From an uncultured archaeon (GTDB lineage: Archaea > Asgardarchaeota > Lokiarchaeia > Helarchaeales > HEL-GB-A): a stretch of 8,062 nucleotides of DNA. The notes beneath the pieces are model-generated. The model saw nothing but the letters and a program-made list of their open reading frames with translations. It was not told the DNA's origin and did not search any database. Shown piece by piece: positions 92-6,763 of the stretch (position 1 is the first letter of the stretch; each line of letters starts with the position of its first letter). A program made the translations under genes and the position numbers. Location of the stretch: the NCBI GenBank assembly GCA_964353755.1, contig CAYGYC010000215.1:1-8062 (forward strand), written 5' to 3'.

Positions 92-298
92 ATGCCATCA
101 AAACCAATTTCTATAACAATTGAGGTCTATGAATTGTTAGATAAATTTCGAATGAAGAATGAAAGTTTTTCCCAAGCAATTAAGCGCTTATTGGAATCAC
201 AAACGAATCTTATGGATCTTGCGGGAGGGTGGAAATCTATCCCGGATGTCGACGCAGCAATTGACCTTATCGAAAAAGTAGTGAAAAAAATTCATTGA
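92..298 (+). CDS. vapB: VapB-type antitoxin (archaeal PF02697/COG1753-like small antitoxin)
   Basis: 68-aa ORF with an ATG start and GTGATG (SD-like) at 82-87. The N-terminus ISITIEVYELLDKFRMKNESFSQAIKRLL fits the xTIxIxdEvYexLxxxKxxxESFSdvIrrLL pattern of archaeal antitoxins found upstream of PIN genes. It lies directly upstream of a PIN-domain ORF. The family assignment is from memory and was not searched. Confidence 0.7.
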   Translation: MPSKPISITIEVYELLDKFRMKNESFSQAIKRLLESQTNLMDLAGGWKSIPDVDAAIDLIEKVVKKIH

Positions 299-354
299 TT
301 CTAACGTAATGATTGATTTTTTTAATTGATTCTAACGTAATGATTGATTTTTTA
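294..354. repeat. 31/30-bp tandem direct duplication spanning the vapB stop and vapC start
   Basis: Copy 1 is 294-324, ATTGATTCTAACGTAATGATTGAT+T6+A. Copy 2 is 325-354, the same sequence with T5. They are identical apart from one T in the homopolymer run. Confidence 0.9.
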
Positions 355-747
355 AAAGGTAACGAAGCAACAATCAAAGAAATTGACCAATTTATATCGA
401 AAAAGATACCTCTTTTCATTTCAACCATTTCAATCTATGAAGTATATATGGGCATTATCGCAAACCTGTATTTAAAAGATGGGCGACCTTCAAAAGTCCC
501 GGATCTCTTACAGATGTATGAAAAATTTCTCTTCAAATGTGGTATCCTTAATTTTTCACGGGAGGCTGCCGAAAAAGCTGCAGATATTTATGCCCAATCA
601 CAAGGTAAAGGTGTAACTATCAAAGAAAAAGATTGCCAAATTGCGGGAATTGCATTATCTTATGGTATCTCAACCGTTTTTACTCGCGATAAATACGATT
701 TTTCTAAAATATTCGATATTACGGGATTGAAATTTCTATCGTATTAA
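313..747 (+). CDS. vapC: VapC toxin, PIN-domain ribonuclease
   Basis: 144-aa ORF. The N-terminal MIFLIDSNVMIDFL carries the first PIN acidic residue in a (hydrophobic)3-D-S/T-N-V context. Further conserved acidic positions are plausible at YEVY (E), KEKDCQIAG (D) and FTRDKYDF (D). It is paired with an upstream antitoxin. The start is TTG at 313 and lies inside the duplicated segment, and the next ATG (340) falls after the catalytic Asp, so the exact start is uncertain. Confidence 0.8.
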   Translation: MIFLIDSNVMIDFLKGNEATIKEIDQFISKKIPLFISTISIYEVYMGIIANLYLKDGRPSKVPDLLQMYEKFLFKCGILNFSREAAEKAADIYAQSQGKGVTIKEKDCQIAGIALSYGISTVFTRDKYDFSKIFDITGLKFLSY

Positions 748-1392: not shown

Positions 1393-1875
1393 TTATTCGC
1401 TTTTCGGTTTTTCGTCCTTTAAGGACCAGGATTCACTTTGCGTTTCTTCTGGGGCTTTTCCTTTTTCTTTCTCTGGTTTTGGGCCTTTTTTCTCCACGTC
1501 AAAGATGGCGGCAATATAGAGGTGGTTATTGCATTTTTCGCATGGCTCCTTCAGTTCTTGGAACACATATTCATCCTTTTCGAATTTGCGCCCCTTCGTA
1601 AATTTACAATTGGGACTATTGGTACATTTCAGGAGGGAAATGGTTTCGATTACGGGTTTGATAATGCCTTGCTGCGCTATGAACAGGAGGAAGGTACTGG
1701 GTATCAGCAGGAGGAATCCTAGAATCAGCATGTAAAGCGGATCTACCCCCGGAATGATGGAACCCCACATTATGCCCATGAATCCGAGCGCAATTAAGAG
1801 CATCGCTAGGAGCATGAATACGTAGGCCAATACTTTGAGAATTTTTGCAGAGCTACTTAATTTTACTTCCGACAT
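1393..1875 (-). CDS. small membrane protein: two N-terminal TM helices plus a C-terminal 4-Cys zinc-ribbon and a Lys/Glu-rich tail
   Basis: Hydrophobic segments VLAYVFMLLAMLLIALGFMGIMW and LYMLILGFLLLIPSTFLLFIA are followed by CTNSPNC...CEKC. The gene is in an operon with its flanking genes. ATG 1875 is preceded by AAGGAG 9 nt upstream and is preferred. The track start GTG 1896 would overlap the upstream stop by 8 nt. No family was recognised. Confidence 0.6.
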   Translation of the reverse strand: MSEVKLSSSAKILKVLAYVFMLLAMLLIALGFMGIMWGSIIPGVDPLYMLILGFLLLIPSTFLLFIAQQGIIKPVIETISLLKCTNSPNCKFTKGRKFEKDEYVFQELKEPCEKCNNHLYIAAIFDVEKKGPKPEKEKGKAPEETQSESWSLKDEKPKSE

Positions 1876-1888
1876 ATCTTTCTTCTCC

Positions 1889-3019
1889 TTAATCACCTAT
1901 GCCACAGCAATTGCCGACACCCGCAATGATCACATTCTCCCCTTCTGCGGTGCGGGTCTTTATGGCGGTTTTAATCTCCTCAATCGCTTTGGGAATACTT
2001 TTCACCAGATCTTTATTCATGGGACCATACGCATCCTCTTGACTCTCCTCGATGACAACACCATCCATGGGCAGTTTGTATTGCACACCGGCTGATTCTT
2101 CAATGTAATATTTTTCGACTGGTGGACCGCCAATCACTGCGCCAACGCCTGTAATGACCGTTCCTGTTTTTTCGCCTTCCAGTTTTAATCCCGCATCGAT
2201 CATGATAAGACGGGCAATCTTGCCATTTTTTTCTTCAATCAATTTCTTGATCGCGACACCCGGCTTCCCAACCGTGGCACCAGGTCCTGTAGCTCTGATT
2301 AGAAAGACGTTGCGCCGTTCAATCTCCATTTCATAGAGGGTGATATCTTTGGTGTATTCTTTGGTGATTTGAGGCGGCGATTGCTTGCTATACTCCCGGA
2401 CCAGCGTAGTAGTAACCAGCGGCCCGATCCCGTCGCCGATTGGCCTCCCTTCGCTAAACGCTTTTAAGGCTTTGAAAACGGCTTTTACTATTAGCATTAT
2501 TAGTGGAAGTTGCATCTGAACTTGCATGATGAGTATAAGGCTCTTCGTTTTCTTTCCGAGTATTAGAAAATGCCGAATAATTTTGTAAATGATATTAACC
2601 GTTCCCGCTGCTTCAATGGTGTTCTCAATATTTGCGGCGATCTCGCGGGACGCGGTAGGAGCTATTTGCTGAACATGCTGTTCCCACCGCGTTTTTCGGA
2701 TGTCCAGAATGTGTTCAAGCCGATAAATTACACCCGCCGGATCTGCACTTACGGGTTCGACAGTGAAAAAATCCAAGAGCGCCTCTATCGTTGGACGTGG
2801 ATCCTCTTTTGGTTTGCCTCGTTCATTGACCATTTTTACAAGAATTTCCTTCCCATCTTTATTCATCATTTCTAATTCGCGCAACGCGACTTCAATCTGT
2901 TTTTGCATCATCCATAATTGCATTCGCTGATTGTAGAAGAAAATGATAAAGAAGAACGCAAGAAATATCATTTGGAAAACAATTGACCATTCACTATTCA
3001 TTTGCATTTTTAGTTTCAC
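1889..3019 (-). CDS. conserved archaeal membrane-anchored protein, DUF1512-like
   Basis: Long 376-aa ORF with an N-terminal TM helix (IVFQMIFLAFFFIIFFY), coherent composition and only short shadow ORFs opposite it. Motifs such as RPIGDGIGP and GPGATVGKPG recall the archaeal DUF1512 family. That call is from memory only and is unverified. The start is GTG 3019 or ATG 3007/3001. Confidence 0.8.
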   Translation of the reverse strand: MKLKMQMNSEWSIVFQMIFLAFFFIIFFYNQRMQLWMMQKQIEVALRELEMMNKDGKEILVKMVNERGKPKEDPRPTIEALLDFFTVEPVSADPAGVIYRLEHILDIRKTRWEQHVQQIAPTASREIAANIENTIEAAGTVNIIYKIIRHFLILGKKTKSLILIMQVQMQLPLIMLIVKAVFKALKAFSEGRPIGDGIGPLVTTTLVREYSKQSPPQITKEYTKDITLYEMEIERRNVFLIRATGPGATVGKPGVAIKKLIEEKNGKIARLIMIDAGLKLEGEKTGTVITGVGAVIGGPPVEKYYIEESAGVQYKLPMDGVVIEESQEDAYGPMNKDLVKSIPKAIEEIKTAIKTRTAEGENVIIAGVGNCCGIGD

Positions 3020-3432
3020 ATCAATTTACTTGAATTTAACTTACCTTTAGTCAAAAACTAGAGACACTAAGTGTATTGTACTCAGTCGCTTGTGAGTTTC
3101 AATTCCTCATAGGTCCATAATTTTTCTTCTAAATTAATGGAATTATATCATCTTTTTATAAAAATTTTGCCTTCCCTAGACTATTCTTCGGATACGCAAT
3201 TACCTCTATTCGCATTCCCTAGCAAAAATATGCAAAATACATTATTTTTCCCTATAAAAAGGTTTTTTCATTACGGGAATCCTGATGATTTACCTCTTTC
3301 CATTTCATTATCCCTTTAAAGCGTGATTTTCAATTTTCAATATTCCGCCTTTTCATTTCATCCTCTCTCCCGTCTCAATATTAGTCCTTACAAAACTTTT
3401 TTAAAAGGGAATATCTTTTTTGAGTATTAATA

Positions 3433-3441
3433 AATTTAAAT
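3433..3441 (+). promoter_or_regulatory. candidate TATA box for the 5S transcription unit
   Basis: AATTTAAAT would place a start site near 3465, about 25 nt before the leader stem begins at 3490. Confidence 0.3.
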
Positions 3442-3489
3442 CAGCGACCTTCAAAGTCTCAAAAGTCAGCCTAAAAAAAAGCGCAGAAA

Positions 3490-3550
3490 CCGAAAAATTC
3501 GTAAAAAAAGAGTAGAAACCGAAGAAAAAGCGCAGGAGTTTCACGCCGAA
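3490..3550 (+). other. 5S leader: 5' strand of the processing stem, including a BHB-like motif
   Basis: 3490-3504 pairs with 3694-3709 (15 bp, one bulged A). 3522-3527 pairs with 3690-3695, 3531-3533 with 3685-3687, GUUUCAC 3538-3544 with GUGAAAC 3673-3679, and GCCG 3545-3548 with CGGC 3666-3669. The leader also contains an internal direct repeat: AGAAACCGAA at 3485-3494 and 3515-3524, and GCGCAG at 3481-3486 and 3530-3535. Confidence 0.6.
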
Positions 3551-3687
3551 ATAAGGCCCTACACGTTCTAACTTGTACTGCCGTGCGCGAGCCGGCGGGA
3601 ACGTTAGATCGCTGACCTTCGGGTCGGTCATAGCTAGGGAGCAACTCCCGTTCTCATCCCGAACACGGCAGAGTGAAACCCCCGGCG
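3551..3687 (+). rRNA. 5S rRNA, circularly permuted gene (3' domain - C(UUCG)G - 5' domain)
   Basis: 3622-3671 is a clear 5S 5' half: GGUCGGUC AUA GCUAGGG...CCCGUUCUCAUCCCGAACACGG. 3567-3617 is a clear 5S 3' domain: helix V UCUAAC/GUUAGA, loop-E-like UUGUAC/GGAAC, helix IV UGCCG/CGGCG, and helix I 3' strand GCUGACC. The two native ends are joined by UUCG at 3618-3621. The core is 3551-3671 (121 nt) if cut at the BHB-like bulges, or about 3564-3687 if the ends lie in loop A. Confidence 0.8.
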
Positions 3688-3709
3688 AATTTCTTACGAA
3701 TATTTTCGG
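3672..3709 (+). other. 5S trailer: 3' strand of the processing stem
   Basis: Complementary to leader 3490-3548 as listed for the leader feature. It is followed directly by T-runs. Confidence 0.55.
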
Positions 3710-3712
3710 ATA

Positions 3713-3728
3713 TTTTTTCTATCTTTTT
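3713..3728 (+). terminator. oligo-T terminators after the 5S unit
   Basis: T6 at 3713-3718 and T5 at 3724-3728 follow the trailer stem. A further T7 lies at 3770-3776. Confidence 0.45.
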
Positions 3729-3799
3729 CAGAATGCCATTTTCCACTTGTATATTGCGTAGAATTTCTCTTTTTTTAAAAAATATCTCCAAGGTCGGGC

Positions 3800-3807
3800 A
3801 AAAAAAA
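3800..3807 (-). terminator. T8 terminator of the tRNA-Trp/tRNA-Pro transcript
   Basis: The minus strand reads ...CCCGCCC G CC TTTTTTTT directly after the tRNA-Pro acceptor end. Confidence 0.55.
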
Positions 3808-3823
3808 GGCGGGCGGGACGGGA

Positions 3824-3852
3824 CTTTCTCAAAATGGAATGCGCCATTCTGA
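3824..3852 (-). other. tRNA-Pro T-loop intron (about 59/60), 29 nt
   Basis: The fold reads GCGGG-UUCG-[AAU]-inner hairpin (GAAUG GCG CAUUC)-AGAA-[AGU]-CCCGU. This is two 3-nt bulges around a 4-position helix with 3 pairs. Splicing restores UUCGAAU. Confidence 0.7.
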
Positions 3853-3890
3853 TTCGAACCCGCGACCTCTGGTTCCCAAGACCAGAATCC

Positions 3891-3920
3891 TGGTTAATCT
3901 GGGAGAAGTCCCAGAGTTTA
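3891..3920 (-). other. tRNA-Pro D-loop insertion/intron, about 30 nt (boundaries approximate)
   Basis: The D-loop AGCAUGGCUA is followed by an insertion holding a perfect 7-bp hairpin UCUGGGA-CUUC-UCCCAGA, then the D-stem 3' strand GGAU. The BHB here is relaxed and I could not fix the exact junctions. Confidence 0.55.
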
Positions 3921-3970
3921 TAGCCATGCTAGACTACCCGCCCAGTATTGCGTGTATGGGGTCGGAGGGA

Positions 3971-3998
3971 TTTTCACAAAATGATCCTATCATTTTGA
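3971..3998 (-). other. tRNA-Trp T-loop intron (about 59/60), 28 nt, textbook BHB
   Basis: The fold reads GAGGG-UUCA-[AAU]-CAAAAUGAU AGG AUCAUUUUG-UGAA-[AAU]-CCCUC. This is two 3-nt bulges separated by a perfect 4-bp helix. Splicing gives UUCAAAU. Confidence 0.8.
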
Positions 3999-4014
3999 TT
4001 TGAACCCTCGATTA

Positions 4015-4046
4015 TTACCAGAAATGCTCTCTTCAAGGGCATTTCC
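4015..4046 (-). other. tRNA-Trp intron at about 43/44, 32 nt
   Basis: It contains a 7-bp hairpin GAAAUGC...GCAUUUC. The fold reads ACCC/UGGU (3 of 4 pairs)-[AGG]...[AAU]. Removal leaves the 5-nt variable loop UAAUC before GAGGG. Confidence 0.6.
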
Positions 4047-4052
4047 CTGGGT

Positions 4053-4121
4053 CTCACCGGAATCGCTCCAAAAGTTCGTCATCCGCGCTTGGCGTCAGTA
4101 GACCCTATTTAGAAGATTCTT
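4053..4121 (-). other. tRNA-Trp canonical 37/38 intron, 69 nt
   Basis: The fold reads CUGGG-CUCC-[AGA]-(A)GAAUC...GAUUC(C)-GGUG-[AGA]-CCCAG. It is BHB-like with one U.U in the central helix. Internally it carries CUGA...CGC-CAA-GCG...GAUGA. Confidence 0.75.
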
Positions 4122-4352
4122 CTGGAGCCCAGCGTCTTTCCGGTCTGGACGACGACCCCATTACTGGATTCTTTTTATTCTACTTTGTCATCTATCCACT
4201 GCTTTTATTTTGACCTTGAACTTCATTACGGTTCGGTTTATATGAAGTTACCCATCAATCCCTTTTAACTTCAATGATCAATGGGCAAGGTCTAAATGAT
4301 GGGGTACCATTTAAAGATTCTGGATTGTCTTTCTCTCAAAAAGGAAAGAGAT

Positions 4353-5464: not shown

Positions 5465-6763
5465 ATGTCACATCCAGTTTCAACTACAAAGTATATAATT
5501 CATGGACTAATTGAAGTTGAAGGGGTTGTAGAAAAACCCGATGTTGTTGGTGCCATATTTGGGCAGACGGAAGGCTTATTGGGCGAAGAATTAGACCTTC
5601 GAGAATTACAGAAGACCGGACGGATTGGGCGAATTCAAGTCAATATTGAATCGAAGGAAGGCAAATCGACAGGGGAAATTCTGATTCCCTCCAGTTTAAA
5701 CCGGGTGGAAACATCTATTTTAGCATCTGCTTTGGAAACGGTTGATAGGGTCGGTCCGTGCACTGCAAAAATCCTCTTAGAACAAATTGAAGATGTGCGC
5801 GAAGTGAAACGGCGGCAAATAATTAATCGCGCGGCGAACATTCTAAAGCACTGGGAAGAAGATACGATTCCTGAAAGCCAGGAACTCACCAATGAAGTTA
5901 TGCAATCGGCGAAAGTTGGCGATATTGCCAAATATGGGCCTGAGGATCTGCCGGCAGGACCAGAGGTTGAACAAGCAACCGAATTGATCGTTGTCGAAGG
6001 GCGGGCGGATATCCTAAACTTATTAAGATGTGGAATCACGAATACCCTTGCCCTGGAAGGGACGAATGTTCCCCAAACAGTCATTGATATTTCAAAACAA
6101 AAAGAAGTGACCGCCTTTTTAGATGGCGATCGCGGCGGCGACCTCATTTTAAAAGAACTGCTTCAGGTTGCCAAAATTCAGTTTGTAGCCCGCGCACCGC
6201 CAGGAAAGGAAGTCGAAGATTTAACGAAAAAAGAACTCATTAAGTATTTAAAAAGTAAAATTCCCCTGGATAAATATTTGCAGGAACAGGAGAAAAAGAA
6301 AAAAGCCGATAAAGATAAAAAAAATAAAAAGCCGAAGAAATTCCCGCAACATGGTCCACCAAGTCCCCAAGGACCTAAACCACAACCTCCCGTACAAGCG
6401 AAAAAAGAGAAAAGTCCGGTCCAAATCCCGCTTTCTCTAATCAAAAGTATTAATCACTTAAAGGAAACCTTGCAAGCCAATCTGTTTGATTCTGACTTTA
6501 AAATAATCGAGACACTAAATGTCCGAGAACTAGCAGATAAATTGATAGAAACCCAAAGAACCGTAGCTGCCATCGTCTTTGATGGCGTAATTACTCAACG
6601 ATTGGTCGATATTGCCGCAGAAAAAAACATTAAATATTTAATTGGCGCGCGAACTAGCAGTCTTAGTAAGGTGCCTACGGATCTCCACATTATTACTTTT
6701 GACCGTATCACTATCCCTCCTGAAGCCCTTGAACCCGATGAAGAAGATTTAAAAGATCAATGA
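5465..6763 (+). CDS. dnaG: archaeal DnaG-type primase (TOPRIM domain; exosome-associated in other archaea)
   Basis: 432-aa ORF with ATG preceded by AAGGTGA 7 nt upstream. The N-terminus KYIIHGLIEVEGVVEKPDVVGAIFGQTEGLLG is typical of archaeal DnaG. The TOPRIM motifs are present: VVEGRADILNLL (Glu) and FLDGDRGGDLILKELLQ (DxD). Confidence 0.92.
   Translation: MSHPVSTTKYIIHGLIEVEGVVEKPDVVGAIFGQTEGLLGEELDLRELQKTGRIGRIQVNIESKEGKSTGEILIPSSLNRVETSILASALETVDRVGPCTAKILLEQIEDVREVKRRQIINRAANILKHWEEDTIPESQELTNEVMQSAKVGDIAKYGPEDLPAGPEVEQATELIVVEGRADILNLLRCGITNTLALEGTNVPQTVIDISKQKEVTAFLDGDRGGDLILKELLQVAKIQFVARAPPGKEVEDLTKKELIKYLKSKIPLDKYLQEQEKKKKADKDKKNKKPKKFPQHGPPSPQGPKPQPPVQAKKEKSPVQIPLSLIKSINHLKETLQANLFDSDFKIIETLNVRELADKLIETQRTVAAIVFDGVITQRLVDIAAEKNIKYLIGARTSSLSKVPTDLHIITFDRITIPPEALEPDEEDLKDQ

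Follow-up and report, generated by a model that had tools for sequence, protein, structure and literature searches.

How does an archaeon obtain a working 5S rRNA from a gene in which the two halves of the molecule stand in reversed order? This question is raised by positions 3551-3671 (forward strand) of contig CAYGYC010000215.1, all 8,062 bp of which were analysed here and are referred to as the window. Our comparisons indicate that this segment is a functional 5S rRNA gene written in circularly permuted order. Its flanks can pair into a processing stem with a motif of the bulge-helix-bulge (BHB) type, at which cleavage, followed by ligation of G3671 to A3551, would give a closed RNA of 121 nucleotides (nt) with a canonical 5S sequence. 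The assignment draws on separate Rfam matches for the two halves, on covariation and on a circular consensus fold. The arrangement is real, conserved and apparently undescribed, and it combines two themes known separately, BHB-dependent circularisation of rRNA and permuted RNA genes.

The order of elements within the segment is readily traced. It begins with the 3′ strand of helix II (3556-3564, with a CCCUA core at 3557-3561), whose partner at 3633-3640 is supported by covariation, and continues with helix V (3565-3572/3603-3609), loop E, helix IV (3578-3586/3591-3599) and a GCGA loop D, all within 3565-3609 and placed by Rfam alignment and covariation. The 3′ strand of helix I follows, and a UUCG tetraloop (3618-3621) then caps this helix (3611-3617/3622-3628, the whole element spanning 3611-3628; sequence and covariation) at the place where an ordinary 5S rRNA has its two termini. 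Beyond the cap come the 5′ strand of helix I and, within 3629-3671 and aligned to positions 1-52 of the Rfam model, loop A (CAUAG), the 5′ strand of helix II (3633-3640), loop B, and helix III (3648-3653/3661-3668) with its loop C (3654-3660). The pairing of CCCUA (3557-3561) with UAGGG (3635-3639) as helix II had been proposed in an earlier note on this DNA, written from the sequence alone; it is present, and its upstream strand covaries in the homologues described below.

When each piece was searched alone with Infernal in truncated-hit mode, 3620-3671 matched positions 1-52 of RF00001 (34.2 bits, E 2.5e-6) and 3551-3614 matched positions 53-114 (15.6 bits). The join of G3671 to A3551 that the BHB predicts therefore connects model positions 52 and 53, with neither gap nor overlap, which bears out the earlier note's suggestion that this join recreates a 5S sequence. 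An Odinarchaeia locus (L010) that uses another cut register behaves in the same way: its halves correspond to model positions 1-50 (35.2 bits) and 51-120 (36.4 bits), so that the predicted cut sites abut in the 5S model in two clades with differing registers. Read colinearly, the window reached only 29.6 bits over 3620-3727 in a permissive scan, below the gathering score of 38, and this alignment is credible for the 5′ half of the model alone (3620-3687). At the gathering score, Rfam found tRNA-Thr in the window and nothing else.

The leader and trailer contain every pairing claimed for them in the earlier note, at the positions claimed. Furthest out, a distal stem pairs 3490-3504 with 3694-3709; a middle stem within 3522-3533 then pairs AAGAAA (3522-3527) and CGC (3531-3533) with UUUCUU (3690-3695) and GCG (3685-3687), the trailer strands of both occupying 3685-3709 (sequence and minimum free energy (MFE) fold). 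At the inner end, the outer BHB helix h consists of 7 contiguous base pairs between GUUUCAC (3538-3544) and GUGAAAC (3673-3679; sequence and covariation) and is lengthened by the long stem, while the central helix H pairs GCCG (3545-3548) with CGGC (3666-3669) at all four positions. Two 3-nt bulges lie on opposite strands with exactly 4 bp between them. On the 5′ strand, AAA (3549-3551) follows in the h-H-bulge order of tRNA introns, with a predicted cut at 3550/3551 (A3551 being model position 53); on the 3′ strand, the bulge is AGA (3670-3672), with a predicted cut at 3671/3672 (G3671 being model position 52). The 3′ strand of H doubles as the base of helix III in the Rfam alignment.

RNAfold, applied to 3480-3715 as the earlier note had recommended, recovered the distal helix, AAGAA/UUUCU, CGC/GCG and GUUUCAC/GUGAAAC, with a z of -3.36 and none of 200 shuffles folding as well. 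A strict motif, defined as a 4/4 central helix, two 3-nt bulges and at least 7 contiguous outer base pairs, arose anywhere in 60 x 45 nt in 18 of 20,000 shuffled-flank trials, a count that carries no requirement for a register that restores 5S. What speaks most strongly against chance is the comparison with relatives given below. The middle stem (3522-3533) is specific to the window and is not kept in relatives. Compared with theirs, the leader has about 60 extra nt and contains direct repeats within 3481-3535, namely AGAAACCGAA at 3485-3494 and 3515-3524 and GCGCAG at 3481-3486 and 3530-3535; the repeats and the added length suggest a local duplication within the processing stem.

The arrangement recurs well beyond this contig. 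Other Helarchaeota loci next to DnaG have a permuted 5S in the same neighbourhood, and we searched more widely with a DNA pattern that only the permuted order can satisfy (loop E, 22-36 nt, then the motifs of loop A and helices II and III). Run on one genome each from 185,579 species, it returned 19 loci. GC-rich bacterial coding DNA accounts for six of them, which match by chance; the other 13 are archaeal, 12 of them labelled Asgard and one (L011) with Asgard-like neighbours. The labels comprise Odinarchaeia (three), two closed Atabeyarchaeia chromosomes (CP147779 and CP147780, loci L014 and L021), Asgardarchaeum abyssi, Hel_GB_A, Heimdall- and Thor-labelled metagenome-assembled genomes (MAGs) and unclassified Promethearchaeota. 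A stricter pattern applied to JGI metagenomes gave 12 matches, all genuine, and neighbours of DUF1512 yielded one Lokiarchaeota locus (L046) and one distant Helarchaeota locus. Altogether, about 25 distinct homologues with the permuted architecture were found in Hel-, Loki-, Odin-, Atabey-, Asgardarchaeia and Heimdall-like lineages, and this distribution indicates a multi-lineage Asgard trait, not a one-contig oddity. At the gathering score, Rfam reported a 5S in none of 20 permuted loci.

The trait is not uniform within Asgard archaea. A Thorarchaeota locus (L045) carries a canonical colinear 5S at 5630-5748 (+), scoring 52.8 bits with Rfam, immediately upstream of DUF1512 and with no BHB stem in its flanks. 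Both gene orders thus occur within the group in related neighbourhoods, and the position of the colinear gene beside DUF1512 in Thorarchaeota points to replacement in situ. A Lokiarchaeia DnaG locus (L044) had no 5S nearby, and proteins of Promethearchaeum syntrophicum were not among the DnaG or DUF1512 matches listed.

Some loci in the set are of interest in their own right. L024 and L025 share near-identical DNA around the 5S and are labelled Heimdallarchaeota in one MAG and Thorarchaeota in the other, so at least one of the two labels or bins is probably wrong. In two Asgardarchaeum-like loci the permuted 5S lies about 0.6-0.7 kb upstream of the start of the 23S gene, divergently in one case (L026, 682-761 (-) with 1460-2056 (+); L031, 2580-2659 (+) with 3275-3707 (+)), an unusual arrangement of rRNA genes. 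A Hel locus, L039, carries tandem permuted 5S copies at 3573-3718 and 3781-3909 (+), the second of which has the trailer half of the BHB and no matching leader half.

Comparison of these loci shows that both the stem and the permuted 5S structure are maintained by compensatory change. BHBs were located with a finder that imposes the geometry of tRNA introns (5′ strand, h, 4-nt H, 3-nt bulge; 3′ strand, 4-nt H, 3-nt bulge, h); L011 was assigned by eye, and L043 received an alternative register rich in G·U pairs. For most homologues the finder returned a strict motif with 10/10 outer base pairs, a central CGUG/CACG and bulges AAA and GAA. Among 21 distinct flanks, positions 1-5 of the outer helix were paired in all, with three to six pair types each, H pairs 1-3 were likewise formed in all, and the geometry of 4 bp and two 3-nt bulges was kept. 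Cognate leaders and trailers formed 7.5 of 8 pairs, compared with 3.4 of 8 for non-cognate combinations. The earlier note had proposed covariation of leader and trailer as a check on its model, and pairing in these flanks is indeed conserved with covariation: within the Hel clade, for example, the outer helix reads AUUCGC/GCGAAU, GUUCGU/AUGAAC or AUUUGC/GCAGAU. The distal stems of relatives differ in sequence and remain complementary, as in GGUUUAGAUUUG/CAAAUCUAAACC (L020) and GGAUUAGAUUUG/CAAAUCUAAUCC (L004).

For the 5S body we aligned 16 homologous precursors. In the permuted order, 93.9% of the positions expected to pair do so, compared with 72.9% in shuffles (0/500 as high) and 36-47% in controls in which the structure was slid along the alignment. 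The covariation score is 0.604, against 0.186 in shuffles, and 21 of the 38 structure pairs have changed on both sides. Helix II bridges the permutation and is 96.1% paired with compensatory change in 6/8 pairs; the corresponding values are 90% and 6/7 for helix V, 100% and 5/8 for helix IV, and 100% with three compensatory pairs for helix I. When the circles were ligated in silico, circular RNAalifold returned the canonical three-way junction of 5S rRNA.

Three cut registers occur among the homologues: CACG-GA^A, ACGG-AA^ and, in the Hel clade, CGGC-AG^. Cutting in silico after the second bulge nucleotide on each strand and then joining gave, for every one of the 16 aligned homologues, CGG(A/C)AG(U/A/C)UAAG, the Rfam consensus CggAAguUAAGc, with predicted circles of 121-134 nt across the three registers. 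In the window, the predicted junction is ...GAACACGGCAG joined to AUAAGGCCCUAC..., and the product of the Lokiarchaeota locus reads CGGUAAUUAAGC. With this locus included, all products fit CGG(A/C/U)A(G/A)(U/A/C)UAAG. We infer that EndA would cleave after the second bulge nucleotide, since this rule gives adjacent model positions in two clades and a constant product length.

These observations suggest a route from gene to RNA. The leader and trailer would pair into a long processing stem, the innermost part of which forms a relaxed BHB. EndA would cut each bulge behind its second nucleotide, at 3550/3551 and 3671/3672. BHB cleavage leaves 2′,3′-cyclic phosphate and 5′-OH ends, which are substrates of RtcB, and this ligase would then join G3671 to A3551. 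The product would be a closed RNA of 121 nt in which the link from helix III through loop B to helix II is restored (...CGGCAG-AUAAGG...). Because 3666-3669 serves both the central BHB helix and the base of helix III, the precursor and mature folds are mutually exclusive, and discarding the leader strand that occupies the base of helix III would allow that helix, and with it the native 5S fold, to form. That the permuted 5S is repaired by BHB cutting and ligation in this way we consider quite probable. Our preferred reading goes one step further, in that the mature 5S would stay a covalent circle, its helix I cap intact, and be built into the ribosome; we give this a probability of about 0.5. 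It is favoured because no signal for reopening is visible in the helix I caps, which across the homologues show neither a conserved sequence nor a second BHB, though processing there could take place with no visible signal.

The closest competitor shares the cut and the ligation and differs only in what follows: the circle would be an intermediate, opened in the helix I cap by some nuclease to give a linear 5S with normal ends, an outcome that the earlier note had allowed beside the lasting circle. Circular pre-16S rRNA would offer a parallel to such a course, and so would the permuted tRNAs of Cyanidioschyzon, for which a circular intermediate, opened later, is cited (PMC4267664). We think it possible and clearly less likely than a lasting circle, since each cap is a short, stable tetraloop whose sequence varies (UUCG, UGCG, CUCG, GCAA, GUUA and UUUG in relatives) on a helix of 7-13 bp, with nothing seen that would direct a nuclease, and since in one clade helix I is made longer by a covarying hairpin extension that resembles a structural cap more than a spacer. 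Circular 23S rRNA has, moreover, been reported within mature archaeal ribosomes, so that being circular need not prevent an rRNA from working. It is somewhat less likely still that the ends are trimmed, by EndA or another nuclease, and never joined, leaving a linear permuted 5S with a nick where helix III meets loop B, its parts kept in place by helices II and III. No nucleotide could be missing from a nicked molecule either, so a product length that is constant across registers does not on its own prove ligation; brown-algal mitochondrial 5S rRNA is permuted in its final form (PMC4267664), and engineered circularly permuted 5S rRNA is functional in Escherichia coli (PMC7283268). Set against this, the ends left by BHB cleavage suit RtcB, all known RNAs that an archaeal BHB releases from its inner side (tRNA introns, pre-16S and pre-23S) are circularised, and plain end-trimming would have no need of the strict 4-bp, 3-nt geometry kept in many lineages.

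Two further explanations would do away with the permutation altogether, and we regard both as very improbable. The earlier note had itself raised the alternative that the gene is colinear, with the trailer AGUGAAACCCCCGGCG (3672-3687) supplying loop B and the 3′ strand of helix II, so that loop A would hold both ends of an RNA extending from about 3564 to 3687, and leader and trailer would be complementary only incidentally. Within the window alone, this trailer is the better partner of the helix II 5′ strand (6/7 pairs, compared with 5/7 for the upstream segment), and the colinear Rfam alignment does reach into it. The family decides otherwise: over 22 homologues the upstream segment averages 6.5/7 pairs in one fixed register with strong covariation, whereas the best site anywhere in the 28-nt trailer averages 5.5/7 at no fixed position, the trailers covary with the leaders instead, and the colinear score of 29.6 bits falls short of the permuted halves summed (34.2 + 15.6). 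We rejected the trailer as a helix II strand on the grounds that it is not conserved in relatives while the upstream segment covaries. The locus could also be a rearranged pseudogene in decay or an artefact of assembly, the true 5S gene lying elsewhere; the imperfect second copy in L039 and an unexplained insert in L004 would fit decay. The same order is found, however, in independent assemblies (NCBI, ENA, JGI and Logan), in several Asgard classes and on two closed chromosomes, all helices are maintained by compensatory changes, and the promoter-like box and the synteny are conserved. Closed Heimdallarchaeum genomes have no detectable 5S, their authors stating that 5S genes "could not be predicted" (PMC8813620). 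Recurrence, compensatory change and conserved synteny led us to reject both the pseudogene and the artefact.

Several points weigh against a permuted 5S repaired at a BHB and kept as a circle. The inner helix h′ is nearly absent: U3552-A3665 is the sole pair there, as the earlier note had cautioned, and relatives have 0-3 bp, which makes the motif a relaxed hBH and not a strict hBHBh′. In one Hel relative (L004/L005), a 32-nt insert at 3506-3537 (+) separates the leader BHB strand from the 5S body; it is a degenerate duplicate of the first part of the 5S, placed before the genuine helix II strand, and no second motif for its removal was found, so the predicted circle of 153 nt carries it, unexplained, in loop B. 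The single-sequence MFE structure of the 121-nt circle, or of a cap-opened version, is not the 5S fold, a failure that is common for 5S rRNA and uninformative. Our scans covered individual loci, and a second, colinear 5S copy could lie elsewhere in the genome. The search pattern requires conserved 5S motifs and the BHB registers were picked by a finder that maximises pairing, both of which bias the counts upward; the non-cognate and shuffle controls argue against an ascertainment artefact. As to the literature, a 2026 study has 16S and 23S rRNA, "but not 5S", passing through circles, the known maturation routes of archaeal 5S do without EndA, and the only circular 5S reported is a trace form without a BHB in Sulfolobus and Pyrococcus (bioRxiv 10.64898/2026.03.23.713588).

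Inserts of other kinds were seen in some homologues. Two Atabeyarchaeia loci (L014, 373-402 (-); L021, 3680-3708 (-)) and a Hel locus (L002, 199-228 (-)) have a covarying hairpin of about 30 nt at the junction. It lies between the leader BHB strand and the 5S body, precedes a second copy of the central-helix strand and bulge, and resembles an insertion with a duplicated target. By eye, a second BHB, its inner hairpin strong (a complete hBHBh′ in L014 and L021, HBh′ in L002), would arise in these loci on the first ligation; its excision would give the canonical junction. In L025 (3189-3218 (+)) and L024 (6700-6729 (-)), loop C contains a 30-nt insert with the BHB-like arrangement UCCG-AAA ... 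hairpin ... CGGG-AAC; this appears to be a splicing-type intron in a 5S gene, and its removal would restore CAUUCCGAA joined directly to CCCGG. The junction and loop C inserts may be read as further signs of splicing machinery acting on 5S precursors.

The 5S gene is embedded in a conserved neighbourhood. The 8,062-bp contig encodes a VapBC pair, a cytidylyltransferase-like protein, a DUF1512 protein, the archaeal DnaG primase and ribosomal protein uS2. A look-up of the exact DnaG product gave no match. In a homology search, the nearest relatives of DnaG (about 70% identity) were labelled Candidatus Helarchaeota, and the next tier comprised other Asgard archaea; because of these labels, we assign the source organism to a Helarchaeota-like Asgard archaeon. 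In Hel relatives, the permuted 5S shares its surroundings (DUF1512 ... DnaG, uS2) together with a promoter-like box. In the window this box, ACAAAACTTTTTTAAAAGGG at 3390-3409 (+), resembles a TFB recognition element (BRE) and TATA box, and the ACAAAACTTTTTTAAAA block also stands upstream of the permuted 5S in L001, L020, L041 and L043; we infer a promoter function from this conserved upstream position. Archaeal transcription terminates at T-runs, and two oligo-T runs on the same strand downstream of the stem (3713-3718 and 3724-3728, together spanning 3713-3728) are a likely terminator, judged by sequence alone.

Other features of the window lie outside the 5S locus or merely overlap it. Two open reading frames overlie the gene, at 3401-3631 (-; 76 codons) and 3573-3761 (+; 62 codons); they are almost certainly spurious, though gene finders could call them hypothetical proteins. 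The VapBC pair stands at the start of the contig, with a VapB-like antitoxin (PF02697) at 92-298 (+) and a PIN-domain VapC toxin at 313-747 (+). Downstream of the 5S gene are two over-long tRNA-like genes on the opposite strand, of 134 nt (3810-3943 (-)) and 203 nt (3957-4159 (-)), with matching acceptor strands (GGGCGGG/CCCGCCC and GGGGUCG/CGACCCC) and several inserts each, one of them within the T-loop. The 134-nt gene resembles, by eye, tRNA-Pro(UGG). Neither was detected by Rfam or by ARAGORN with intron mode on or off. Introns at such non-canonical tRNA positions would imply a splicing endonuclease of broad specificity in this organism.

If the proposed route is correct, the closest archaeal relatives of eukaryotes would need RNA splicing and ligation to supply their ribosomes with 5S rRNA. 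The ribosomal 5S of most Asgard lineages (Loki, Hel, Odin, Atabey, Asgardarchaeia and Heimdall-like) could then be a closed circle made by EndA and RtcB, a generalisation for which we see roughly even chances. The "missing" 5S genes of closed Asgard genomes would be present and unrecognised, and a permuted gene would explain why standard tools fail to find 5S in many Asgard genomes; that some Asgard MAG descriptions do list a 5S fits the mixed distribution of gene orders seen here. Annotation pipelines, and genome-quality standards that ask for a 5S, would need a permuted model. Within the searchable literature, this would be the first cellular, non-organellar 5S gene to require cutting and re-ligation, and the first 5S to use the BHB/EndA pathway, whose substrates, according to reviews, are 16S, 23S and tRNA introns alone. 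The full-text literature searched, which omits many subscription papers, yielded no account of an archaeal 5S that is permuted or processed at a BHB. If the circle is the mature form, it would, together with circular 23S, be evidence for archaeal ribosomes built from closed RNAs. The two gene orders, three cut registers and nested BHB inserts also provide a natural series in which to study how RNA genes become permuted.

Among known systems, the canonical RF00001 5S, such as that of Thorarchaeota L045, has the same helices, the same loop A, C and E sequences and the same DUF1512 neighbourhood; it is colinear, has its own promoter near the 5′ end and no BHB stem, and is detected by standard tools (52.8 bits, compared with 29.6 for the window). 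The processing stem resembles those of the archaeal precursors of 16S and 23S rRNA, which likewise have a long leader/trailer stem with a BHB at its inner end, from which the inner rRNA is released and circularised. The differences are that the RNA here is 5S, for which the pathway has been described as unused, that h′ is nearly absent, and that ligation builds an internal part of the mature structure, whereas in the larger rRNAs it joins spacer remnants at the natural ends.

In the permuted tRNA genes of Cyanidioschyzon merolae, a short linker joins the natural termini, the BHB lies at the ends of the precursor, and ligation restores an internal loop. RNase P and RNase Z open the resulting tRNA circles again at the acceptor stem; the 5S caps show no signal of this sort. 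These genes likewise place the 3′ half before the 5′ half and are expressed through a circular intermediate (PMC4267664); they concern a different class of RNA in a different domain of life. Permuted 5S rRNA is otherwise known only from the mitochondria of brown algae and other stramenopiles, where a closed hairpin likewise stands in place of helix I and the ends are found at another site (PMC4267664). There the final RNA is itself permuted, an open three-way junction with its ends at the junction of two domains, and BHB, ligation and repair are not involved (PMC4267664); the break in the window separates helix III from loop B, with a conserved BHB and stem flanking it. Covalently circular archaeal 5S has also been seen in Sulfolobus solfataricus and Pyrococcus abyssi, where it is of low abundance and doubtful function and comes from colinear genes without a BHB (bioRxiv 10.64898/2026.03.23.713588), whereas here the circle would be the obligatory product. 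The permuted 23S rRNA of Pyrococcus and Thermococcus likewise owes a mature connectivity unlike its gene order to BHB-dependent circularisation (PMC7758197; bioRxiv 10.64898/2026.03.23.713588). In that case a colinear gene gives a permuted RNA, the circle being opened by excision of helix 98; in the Asgard 5S, a permuted gene would give a canonical RNA by processing.

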